DNA from: a virus
DNA: 64,000 nucleotides
Virus record (IMG/VR): IMGVR_UViG_3300025018_000143
Coordinates: 1 to 64,000 of that record
Strand: one strand, 5' to 3'
Below, in pieces: positions 17,172 through 19,725 of this stretch (its first letter is position 1; each line of letters begins with the position of its first letter). Both the position numbers and the translations under genes were made by a program. The notes under the pieces are model-generated. The model did no database searches, was not told the origin of the DNA, and worked only from the letters and a program-made list of their open reading frames with translations.

Positions 17172-17179
17172 TATAAATA
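17172..17179 (+). promoter_or_regulatory. T4-type late promoter for the lysis cassette
   Basis: TATAAATA about 65 nt upstream of the holin. Confidence 0.7.
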
Positions 17180-17242
17180 ATATTGTAATTCTTTTACTTA
17201 ATCTTTTTCTTAATCTGGTTAACGGATGCAATATAATATTCA

Positions 17243-17650
17243 ATGTTTAACAATAATGAACAACTACAATTTATAATATCTGCTGTGATGATGTCTATAG
17301 TTGGAGGCATCGCCAACTGGCTCATGGCAGATAAGCACAGTGTATTCCAATTCATTGTTGCAGTATTTCTAGCTGGGTTCGCAGGATTCCTGGTAGGGCA
17401 ACTATGCCTCGAGGCCAAAATCTCTGAGGCAGTTTCTTTCTTCCTTTGCGGCTCAGCTGGATTATGTGCTGAAATGATCCTCAAAATTTCCAAGAAGGCA
17501 ATGCTTTCTAAATTTAGCTTAATGACTGACCAGAAGCTGGATGAAGAATTGGACATGATTGAAAAAGAATATGCCAAAAGAAAATCCCTACATGTATCAA
17601 CAGAAGATGAAAAAGAGTCAAATAATCTAAAAAATTTCCTTAACAAATAA
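17243..17650 (+). CDS. Holin (LydA-like, three TM helices)
   Basis: SIVGGIANWL..., FLAGFAGFLVG, FLCGSAGLCAE pattern; charged C-tail; upstream of a cell-wall hydrolase. Confidence 0.75.
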   Translation: MFNNNEQLQFIISAVMMSIVGGIANWLMADKHSVFQFIVAVFLAGFAGFLVGQLCLEAKISEAVSFFLCGSAGLCAEMILKISKKAMLSKFSLMTDQKLDEELDMIEKEYAKRKSLHVSTEDEKESNNLKNFLNK

Positions 17651-17655
17651 CTCCC

Positions 17656-18510
17656 ATGCAATATATTCATGATCTTATTTTCACCCGAACTATAAATATC
17701 CACCATGCGTATTCTATAGTTGCTCTTATAATTTCTTTATTTGGCCTTGGTATAGCATTCTTTATAAGAAGGGCGGCTGTGTTTAGATTAAAATTAGCCT
17801 GTGTTTACATTTTATTATTCGTAGCAGGGTTAGGTGGCTTCTTATTTGAGCATGAGAAATTTGGTATGGTTGAGCAGACTCTATACACATCATTCTTTAT
17901 TCTTATGACTGTTTTATATTGGAGGGAAGTCTCTTCATATATGACCACAGAAGGATATCACCGCAAATCTCTTGGAATTTATATAGATGATGTTCCAGAT
18001 TTGATATGGGTAAAGGATCTTGAGCACAGGTATACCTATGTAAATAAAGCTGTATCAAGTCTTTTGGGATTACCAATTAATCTTATACTTGGCAAAACTG
18101 AAAATGATATCCGTGAAGTTTTTGAACGAACAGGAATGACTTATACTATTGGGTCAGAAGCCATTAAAGTAGATAATAATCACACAGGCGATTTCATGAT
18201 AGAGCCAAGAATTTTTCTTGATTCTGGTATTATCAATCGAAGGTTTATTGCACTTCAGGTATATAAAGGCCCTCTATATAATAGCGATGATGTAATCACA
18301 AGAAAGCATGTGGGATATTTTGGTATCGGAAGAGACCTGACATACGACGTCGAAGACCATAACAGAATAACTGAACATATAGAAAAAAATGAAATGGACG
18401 AGGCAATGATAATGTTCCAGATTCATAAAAATAGATATCAAAAAGTAAATATTTCTTCTATTAGTTTAAGAAGAAAAGAAGAGGATCAGGATGATAAAAG
18501 TAACATGTAG
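17656..18510 (+). CDS. Three-TM membrane protein with a cytoplasmic PAS domain and no output domain
   Basis: IDDVPDLIWVKDLEHRYTYVNKA..LLG....ILGKT and terminal GYFGIGRDLT are PAS_4/PAC hallmarks. Confidence 0.8.
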   Translation: MQYIHDLIFTRTINIHHAYSIVALIISLFGLGIAFFIRRAAVFRLKLACVYILLFVAGLGGFLFEHEKFGMVEQTLYTSFFILMTVLYWREVSSYMTTEGYHRKSLGIYIDDVPDLIWVKDLEHRYTYVNKAVSSLLGLPINLILGKTENDIREVFERTGMTYTIGSEAIKVDNNHTGDFMIEPRIFLDSGIINRRFIALQVYKGPLYNSDDVITRKHVGYFGIGRDLTYDVEDHNRITEHIEKNEMDEAMIMFQIHKNRYQKVNISSISLRRKEEDQDDKSNM

Positions 18511-18916
18511 CTCAGAAGATTTGGAATGGCTTGCGAGAAATATATATTTCGAAGCCAGGAGTGAAAATATTCTTGGCAGGATGGCGGTTGCTTTTGTTAC
18601 AATGAATAGAGCAACCCATCCAAGAGCAAGATGGGGAAAATCAATAACAAGTGTTGTCACCCAGCGGCTTCAATTTTCATGGTACAACAACAGAGTAGTT
18701 CCTGAGATAAAGAATCAAAATCTGTATAAAGAAATCAAATCACTTGCAAAGCAATGTGTTGAGATATACAACAATATGTCTGATGCAGGATATGAATTGG
18801 ATGGTATCGTCCAAGGAGCAGACCATTACTACGCTACTTGGATTGCACCTCCTAATTGGATTGCTTCAATGAAATTCGTGTGCCAAATTGGGGTACATAA
18901 ATTTTACAAGGCTTGA
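18491..18916 (+). CDS. Cell wall hydrolase, SleB/Hydrolase_2 family (probable endolysin)
   Basis: LARNIYFEARSE, AVAFVTMNR, QFSW, GADHYYA, IGVHKFY. Confidence 0.88.
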   Translation: MIKVTCSSEDLEWLARNIYFEARSENILGRMAVAFVTMNRATHPRARWGKSITSVVTQRLQFSWYNNRVVPEIKNQNLYKEIKSLAKQCVEIYNNMSDAGYELDGIVQGADHYYATWIAPPNWIASMKFVCQIGVHKFYKA

Positions 18917-19579
18917 TTTATTTTTGCAATTGTCGAAGTGCCATCTTTTCATAGGAGCAATTTTGCCTTCTTTTCCGCAATAAACACATACAACATTGGA
19001 TTTTGATAATGATGTTTCTCTCATTTTTTGTTTAGTTGATGAGGAATGAATTCTATTCTTTCCTGCAATAGAAAGATTTTTTTTATGTTCTGGTGATATT
19101 ATTCTTCCTTTATGGGCTGCACTGATTTTTCTTTTGGTTGCTTCGGTTCTAGTTTTACCTTTCAAAGCTTTGCTTATTTGTTTCTTTTGCCATTCGGATA
19201 TTATCATGCCTTTATTAGCTTTGCTTATTTTGTCTCTAGTTTCTTGAGAAATTATTCTACTTTTATTAGCGACAGCAATTAATTTTTTAATTTTTTCATA
19301 GCTTCTACTGTTAATTTTATAATCACGGTACTGATTTTTAGATTTTCTATGTATCATACACCAAAATGCATAATTAATTTTATGATTACTATGCATTTTG
19401 GACAATAACCAATGGCATATAAAATGTTCTCTGGCTTCCAATTCCACTATATTATATTTTGAATTATTCCCTCCCAAACAACTAGGTATTATGTGATGTC
19501 TTTCTTTATAAATATTTTGAAGTAAACATCGATTATTTGCCTTATTTATGATGGATTGATATATTTTAGAATAATTCAT
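18866..19579 (-). mobile_element. Free-standing HNH/NUMOD3 homing endonuclease
   Basis: ERHHIIP..LGG.N...N.VEL.AREHF.CHWLL; repeated SxET..KIS.A.KG (NUMOD3); C-terminal C..CGK...RWHFDNC. Confidence 0.9.
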
Positions 19580-19625: not shown

Positions 19626-19725
19626 AGACCATTACTACGCTGATTATATCAAGAAGCCTGTATGGGCAAAGTATATGAAGCCTACTGTTAAGATAGGTGT
19701 TCATGAATTCTATCATGATGTATAA
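19626..19725 (+). pseudogene. Displaced alternative 3' end of the cell-wall hydrolase
   Basis: Starts with the 16-bp repeat AGACCATTACTACGCT (also at 18820); encodes DHYYADYIKKPVWAKYMKPTVKIGVHEFYHDV*. Confidence 0.85.

Follow-up and report, generated by a model that had tools for sequence, protein, structure and literature searches.

Introduction

The timing of lysis sets the burst size and fitness of a phage. To our knowledge, the controls characterised so far are either built-in clocks, based on holin/antiholin ratios, or respond to superinfection, as in the T-even phages and ICP1, and neither of the T4 antiholins, RI and RIII, is known to us to have a PAS domain. Here, we describe a locus in 64,000 nucleotides of viral DNA (positions 1 to 64,000 of the IMG/VR record IMGVR_UViG_3300025018_000143; this whole stretch is referred to as the window) in which the gene for a 284-amino-acid protein with three predicted membrane helices and a PAS domain, the transmembrane (TM)-PAS protein, is situated between the genes for a LydA-type holin and an endolysin. 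We consider it probable, on balance, that this protein is a holin-coupled lysis regulator and the partner of the holin encoded just before it. An initial annotation of this DNA had proposed a sensory antiholin or lysis timer behind a late promoter; the lysis linkage and the conserved coupling to a holin are borne out by the present analysis, the late-promoter part is not.

The closest described counterpart is the LydA/LydB pair of phage P1 (PF16083/PF16084), whose holin belongs to the same Pfam family as that of the window. In P1, lydB overlaps lydA by 4 nucleotides, whereas in the window the TM-PAS gene starts 5 nucleotides past the stop of the holin gene. The two P1 genes are located behind a late promoter and, unlike in the window, the P1 endolysin is encoded in another operon. 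According to the literature on P1, LydB antagonises LydA and delays lysis, with lydB amber mutants lysing prematurely, and is a protein of 147 amino acids without a predicted membrane domain whose mode of action is not understood (PMC9025707). It differs from the TM-PAS protein in having neither a sensor domain nor a predicted membrane helix. A relationship between the two was considered and rejected: the TM-PAS protein does not match PF16084 at E<=1, and hhalign against P1 LydB gave a probability of 0.16%. To judge from sequence comparison, the TM-PAS protein is a non-homologous occupant of the position that LydB holds in P1.

The T4 system, holin T with the antiholins RI and RIII, also relies on a separate antiholin and comes from a myovirus of the same T4-like kind as the window phage; it differs in that the holin is of another family and RI acts through periplasmic domains. 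In T4, the antiholin is described to bind the holin, to respond to superinfection and, probably, to block holin oligomerisation, and RI can act while anchored in the membrane (PMC11413866). Outside the T-even phages, lysis inhibition by a separately encoded antiholin is described for ICP1, with the holin TeaA and the antiholin ArrA, and the sections of that report used here mention no PAS domain for the ArrA system (PMC7182436). A holin with a separate regulator is a known kind of arrangement.

Further comparisons concern the PAS domain. The structure of VqmA of vibriophage VP882 is among the Foldseek matches of the window protein (7dwm_A, E 2.9e-5). VqmA, a PAS-containing receptor encoded by the phage, reads a small quorum-sensing molecule of the host and determines the moment of lysis. 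It is not a holin-coupled membrane protein but a soluble transcription factor that binds DNA and governs the choice between lysogeny and lysis. Among the top Foldseek matches are also structures of short LOV proteins (7a6p, 9vf7, 7r5n and 7yx0). These short LOV/PAS proteins, such as PpSB2-LOV, PF5-LOV, SBW25-LOV and MrLOVe, consist of a PAS core with flanking helices and have no effector domain, an organisation also found in the PAS part of the window protein. They are soluble, bind flavin via a conserved cysteine motif and pass on the signal by movement of the flanking helices in a dimer, whereas the PAS core of the window protein is cysteine-free and anchored by three membrane helices.

The lysis cassette and the architecture of the TM-PAS protein

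The IMG/VR virus record from which the window is taken measures 73.5 kb and is estimated to be 42% complete. The G+C content of the window is about 34%. Among its gene products are a baseplate wedge protein, a tail sheath protein, a terminase and a ribonucleotide reductase, all of T4 type, based on which we take it to be a fragment of a large T4-like myovirus; no near relative at the DNA level was found among 50,697 GenBank phage records. The cassette comprises three plus-strand open reading frames arranged head to tail (17243-17650, 17656-18510 and 18491-18916), with the following features:

17243-17650, plus strand: LydA-family holin, 135 amino acids, with three predicted membrane helices and a charged C-terminal tail (Pfam PF16083, PHROG)
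17656-18510, plus strand: TM-PAS protein, 284 amino acids, candidate holin-coupled lysis regulator (open reading frame, homologs, AlphaFold2 model)
17707-17931, plus strand: membrane module of the TM-PAS protein, residues 18-92, three helices, predicted N-out/C-in (hydropathy, model helices)
17992-18345, plus strand: PAS core, residues 113-230, predicted to be cytoplasmic (Pfam PAS_8/PAS_4/PAS, five strands, Foldseek)
18346-18444, plus strand: conserved two-helix C-terminal tail, residues 231-263 (model helices, conservation)
18491-18916, plus strand: SleB/CwlJ-type (Hydrolase_2) endolysin, 141 amino acids, without signal sequence (PF07486, PHROG 938)

Four of the five elements that the initial annotation had assigned to this cassette, namely the holin, the PAS protein, the absence of an output domain and the endolysin, were found in place. 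The product of the first gene scores 32.1 bits on PF16083 'LydA holin' (holin superfamily III; cut-off 28.4), a family on which P1 LydA itself reaches 30.1 bits, and matches the PHROG holin families 6384, 785 and 1527. Together with three hydrophobic segments (residues 10-29, 32-58 and 64-82), this agrees with the three-TM holin that had been claimed. Comparison of the holin alignment with P1 LydA by hhalign gave an E value of 5.2e-5 and a probability of 67%. The protein is predicted to form the holes for release of the endolysin. A tblastn search with the window holin in the GenBank phage records gave no matches, perhaps owing to the low-complexity filter, and a search of the contig with PF11031, which we take to be the T holin family, was likewise without matches and is uninformative, as the control matched nowhere either.

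In a hydropathy profile of 43 aligned family members, the TM-PAS protein displays three hydrophobic blocks at about residues 20-34, 47-62 and 76-88. The first loop has a basic character: R38, R39, R44 and K46 each occur in 81-95% of the members, and further basic residues are situated past the third block. Applied to the basic first loop, the positive-inside rule places the N-terminus outside and the PAS domain in the cytoplasm, resulting in the predicted N-out/C-in topology. An AlphaFold2 model of the protein (mean predicted local distance difference test score, pLDDT, 76.7) contains membrane helices at residues 15-36, 41-63 and 66-96 with pLDDT 90-97, the last of which continues with hardly a bend into a helix (98-112) capping the PAS core (116-227). 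The core forms a five-stranded antiparallel sheet in the model (116-120, 126-129, 185-193, 196-208 and 218-227), and is followed by two tail helices (232-243 and 247-263) and 21 disordered residues at the C-terminus.

That the 284-residue protein contains a PAS domain is settled by three lines of evidence, despite a marginal score of the window protein itself: PAS_4 is matched by 37 of the 45 family members at E<=1e-3 (best 6.8e-13), the modelled core is five-stranded, and a Foldseek search with the core against the PDB returned 265 matches at E<=1e-3, the best of which, the PAS domain of BvgS, LOV domains, DosP and NifL, have E values of 1e-6 to 4e-5 and a probability of 1.00. With respect to the profile check called for earlier, PAS_4 is thus confirmed at the level of the family, whereas the window protein stays below the cut-offs of PAS_4 (20.8 versus 23.1) and PAS (20.5 versus 22.6) and just passes that of PAS_8. 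Coordinates, hydropathy blocks, PAS_4 matches of the family and fold all agree with a three-TM and PAS protein encoded 5 nucleotides downstream of the holin. The sequence at the end of the PAS core, G-R-D-L-T-Y-D-x-x-D-H, is reminiscent of the D-I-T motif with which many signalling PAS domains end. LOV photoreceptors carry the flavin-adduct cysteine in the PAS core, and as residues 113-230 are devoid of cysteine, the window protein does not qualify as one.

The initial annotation had also noted that no output domain is present, and this is upheld. At a threshold of E<=1, no Pfam domain of the kinase, GGDEF or DNA-binding type matched the window protein, and neither HisKA/DHp nor HATPase_c was detected, so that the protein is not a sensor histidine kinase by these criteria. 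Beyond the PAS core, only the two-helix tail follows, in which H235 and H257 are present in 91% and 88% of the members, respectively. Across the 45 members, Pfam matches are limited to PAS families and DUF4383.

Distribution of the TM-PAS family

A word-based search identified 13 homologs of 167-288 amino acids with 34-55% identity. An exhaustive profile search yielded 28,252 proteins at E<=1e-3, mostly long multi-PAS sensors that match the PAS part alone; about 45 representatives of 230-340 amino acids, no more than 50% identical to one another, match nearly the whole profile and share a fixed architecture. Mean pairwise identity is 0.28 in the membrane module, 0.33 in the PAS core and 0.26 in the tail, and falls to 0.08 in the last 21 residues. 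As the three modules are similarly conserved, all of them appear to be under constraint. In a subfamily of about 320 residues the membrane region is longer and different, while PAS core and tail are shared with the other members. Word-based searches revealed no shorter or longer (fused) proteins with the membrane module, which is weak evidence, and the membrane module was also rejected as a paralog of the holin (hhalign against the holin alignment, probability 0.2%).

As far as sequence searches can tell, the family occurs in viral and metagenomic DNA only. The prokaryote scan was pattern-limited and covered one genome per species from 185,579 species. No full-length family member was found among the 80 best of 94 confirmed loci; these 80 all align only from query residue 48 or later, with 19-31% identity, and judged by these alignments the matches are PAS domains of cellular sensors outside the TM-PAS family. 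A tblastn search with the TM-PAS protein in the 50,697 GenBank phage records gave no matches. The window protein has no match among the PHROG families, none of the 45 members was assigned to a PHROG lysis family, and two of them weakly touch a 'transcriptional regulator' PHROG. An Atlas cluster found only in viruses, consisting of PAS_4 proteins of about 233 residues with 159 members, has a similar predicted structure (template-modelling score 0.53/0.63) and is a lead only.

Conserved coupling to the holin gene

The TM-PAS gene is tightly and conservedly coupled to a gene for a LydA-type holin in lysis neighbourhoods. Several locus identifiers refer to the same contig (L002=L003=L186, L005=L012, L007=L010, L008=L090 and L096=L181, among others). 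For the alignment of upstream genes we used 13 distinct loci, leaving out L005, L007 and L014 as near-copies of L004, L006 and L015. In 12 of the 13, the gene immediately upstream encodes a PF16083 LydA-type holin. The junction between the two genes is a gap of 0-23 nucleotides or an overlap in all 12 junctions checked among 14 loci examined. While the window, L002 and L004-L009 are T4-like contexts with common flanking genes, the pair is also kept where the flanks differ (L011, L089, L095 and L013-L015). On the downstream side, an endolysin gene was found at a distance of up to 2.5 kb in 12 out of 14 contigs that have 1 kb or more of sequence there. Linkage of the homologs to lysis genes, the absence of which had been named beforehand as a possible refutation, is thus observed on both sides of the TM-PAS gene.

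The downstream enzymes are of different types. A Hydrolase_2-type enzyme is encoded in the window, L002 and L004-L009 (46-58% identity) and in L089, Amidase_2 in L011, where it follows a second holin-type gene, and a Phage_lysozyme in L095, the same open reading frame being present in L097. In L096, two PHROG endolysins (465 and 938, the latter with a membrane anchor) are encoded about 1.5 kb downstream.

The position of the TM-PAS gene leads us to infer strongly that its product acts on the holin. Additional insight comes from L191, one further holin locus, which was found in a scan with the holin alignment. Here, a 109-amino-acid protein (L191:2917-3246), whose gene overlaps the holin gene by 4 nucleotides, corresponds to the membrane module alone (38% identity over 78 residues, E 9e-18) and ends just past the conserved L-Y-W-R-E. 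Two unrelated small open reading frames replace PAS core and tail, and a signal-bearing SleB-type endolysin is encoded 0.85 kb further on. This arrangement points to the membrane module as the effector, to which the PAS domain would add regulation.

L096 (L096:1486-4958) encodes a variant member of 326 residues preceded by a 158-residue single-helix protein instead of a LydA holin. In L011, whose phage is not T4-like, a PHROG 36209 holin with one N-terminal helix is encoded at L011:4831-5274, giving the order holin, PAS, holin, lysin. L182 (L182:3646-4990) encodes a soluble 207-residue PAS protein whose PAS core is 40% identical to that of the variant subfamily; its gene overlaps the next one, for an 81-residue membrane protein, which is followed by a PHROG 894 endolysin, so that the PAS gene heads the lysis cluster.

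Proposed role and alternative explanations

We propose that the holin and TM-PAS genes, with their tight junction, would be translated together from one late transcript. The three-helix module would then reside beside the holin in the inner membrane, contact it and control its oligomerisation into holes, most likely by holding the holin back in the manner of an antiholin. In analogy with P1 LydB and T4 RI, and provided that the protein is a lysis regulator, we regard inhibition of the holin as the likelier sign of its effect by a fair margin. The third membrane helix is continuous with the cytoplasmic PAS domain in the structural model, and, by reference to the flanking helices of short LOV proteins, the PAS domain may modulate the module through this helix: a change in the domain, be it in its ligand, its dimer or the redox or energy state, would reach the membrane module and loosen or strengthen its grip on the holin. 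The two-helix tail might serve as the dimer or output helix pair of the PAS domain or as a contact for the cytoplasmic tail of the holin. The window endolysin has no signal sequence and would therefore depend fully on the holin holes. More tentatively, it might be speculated that the family represents widespread sensor antiholins confined to viruses, whose PAS domain reads the energy or redox state of the infected cell or a metabolite and holds or releases the LydA-type holin via the continuous helix; this narrower proposal has, in our estimate, a lower chance of being correct than the general role as a regulator. A predicted complex of holin and PAS protein (two alignments, without controls) scored 0.00, which counts neither for nor against binding.

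Several points weigh against the regulator reading. Binding of the holin, response to a signal and the direction of the effect are all matters of inference, and the late promoter rests on a single 8-mer not beyond chance and is a guess. Genomic context was read for 17 distinct contigs including the window, with about 30 further representatives outside this set. Seven of these contigs fall into one syntenic T4-like group, so that the loci are not independent but partly kin by descent. The upstream gene of L096, which belongs to the variant subfamily, is without a LydA match. In L014 and L015, which represent one phage type, no endolysin is encoded within the available 1.1-1.5 kb of downstream sequence, where an HNH gene and genes for a DUF1353 protein and a secreted protein are found instead. 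As L191 does without the PAS domain, at least one phage can dispense with the sensor. With respect to the domain itself, the window protein exceeds the PAS_8 cut-off by a narrow margin (22.3 versus 21.8 bits), the PAS core of the family has no invariant cofactor-type residue (Cys, His or Trp) and that of the window protein no cysteine at all. A PDB sequence search with the family profile returned nothing at E<=1e-3, and without a relative at the sequence level the class of ligand cannot be guessed. The PAS domain may also serve as a dimerisation module alone.

Two other explanations deserve attention, both of which we consider unlikely. The TM-PAS protein could be a pro-lysis component, either an additional (accessory) holin or an activator of the holin, in which the membrane module forms or triggers the hole and the PAS domain gates it. 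Three helices with a predicted N-out/C-in topology would be in line with class I holins, which have this arrangement, and translation together with the holin would suit a signal-gated co-holin as well. L011, with two holin-type genes around the PAS gene, and L191, with the module alone, also fit this idea, and systems with multiple holins do exist, LydA, LydC and LydD of P1 being an example (PMC9025707). However, the membrane module is related neither to the holins encoded next to it nor to any holin family in PHROG, and nearly all loci already encode a bona fide holin. In addition, the cytoplasmic domain of 190 residues is unlike that of known holins, which have short charged tails.

An equally small chance is given to the possibility that the protein is a membrane sensor or decoy outside lysis, which pairs with host PAS sensor kinases or acts in superinfection exclusion and neighbours the holin since both are late membrane proteins. 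The resemblance of the PAS core to thousands of cellular multi-PAS sensors would be expected from such a role, as would the leading position of membrane histidine kinases in the Atlas structure search, and neither L014/L015, with no endolysin nearby, nor L096, with no upstream LydA holin, speaks for a function in lysis. Yet neither chance nor mere joint expression accounts for the persistence of the pair, with overlapping or almost touching frames, across several unrelated genome contexts and endolysin types, or for the retention of the junction by the module-alone copy in L191. A decaying, functionless fragment of a captured host sensor kinase is highly improbable: although the order of membrane helices, PAS domain and helical hairpin resembles the front half of membrane histidine kinases (rows 1-3 of the Atlas search), this notion, raised earlier as a way in which the proposal might fail, is contradicted by the intact frame, the fixed length and architecture in about 45 diverged representatives, the conserved tail, the absence of any HisKA/HATPase_c remnant at E<=1 and of longer proteins with the membrane module in word-based and profile searches, and the lack of a full-length relative among the 80 best prokaryote loci.

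No PAS protein in a phage lysis cassette was found to be described in the literature searched by titles and abstract starts, which supports the earlier statement that no characterised PAS-regulated lysis cassette is known. If the holin-coupled regulator with a sensory PAS domain is real, strictly lytic phages could adjust the time of burst to host physiology instead of following a fixed clock or superinfection. A holin partner with a standard signal-input domain would show that the moment of lysis can be coupled to the internal state of the host, and holin, TM-PAS protein and endolysin would represent a simple two- or three-gene test system. Such work would shed light on the LydA/LydB arrangement, in which the mechanism of LydB is left unexplained (PMC9025707), and synthetic biology would gain a compact, ligand-gated switch for lysis.

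Transcription signals

The initial annotation had placed a late promoter in front of the cassette, and a corresponding motif is present:

17172-17179, plus strand: TATAAATA, candidate T4-type late promoter, 63 nucleotides upstream of the holin start; weak

The assignment is not sustained, as the motif is not significantly more frequent in the window than expected by chance and is not kept in relatives. The window contains 18 copies compared to 12.7 +/- 3.7 expected, a number reached in 11 of 100 shuffles, and within 200 nucleotides upstream of the holin gene the motif is absent from all 13 related loci. Sites resembling sigma-70 promoters also occur at chance level (17 found versus 16.1 expected), and a terminator scan revealed no plus-strand terminator inside the three-gene cassette. 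A second exact TATAAATA is located at 17691-17698 within the PAS gene, 35 nucleotides past its start, and is probably due to chance.

The endolysin and its surroundings

The endolysin gene overlaps the PAS gene by 20 nucleotides. Its product scores 58.4 bits on PF07486 (Hydrolase_2; cut-off 27) and matches PHROG endolysin 938 at 1.1e-18, in full agreement with the overlapping SleB-type hydrolase that had been predicted. No hydrophobic segment was detected in the window endolysin, whereas the enzymes of L002, L004-L009 and L191 carry an N-terminal hydrophobic segment that may act as signal or signal-anchor (compared were the window enzyme at 18491-18916 and those at L002:2249-2884, L004:4869-5573 and L191:4091-4675). 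Based on the presence or absence of this segment, close relatives would differ in whether the enzyme is exported or wholly dependent on the holin.

A gene for an HNH/NUMOD-type homing endonuclease (18866-19579, minus strand) lies antisense on the 3' end of the endolysin gene. A 16-mer at 18820-18835 recurs at 19626-19641, and an alternative intact C-terminus of the endolysin is stranded in frame past the second copy. A similar situation is found in L007, where an HNH open reading frame past the lysin gene is followed by a duplicate of the lysin end of 35 amino acids.

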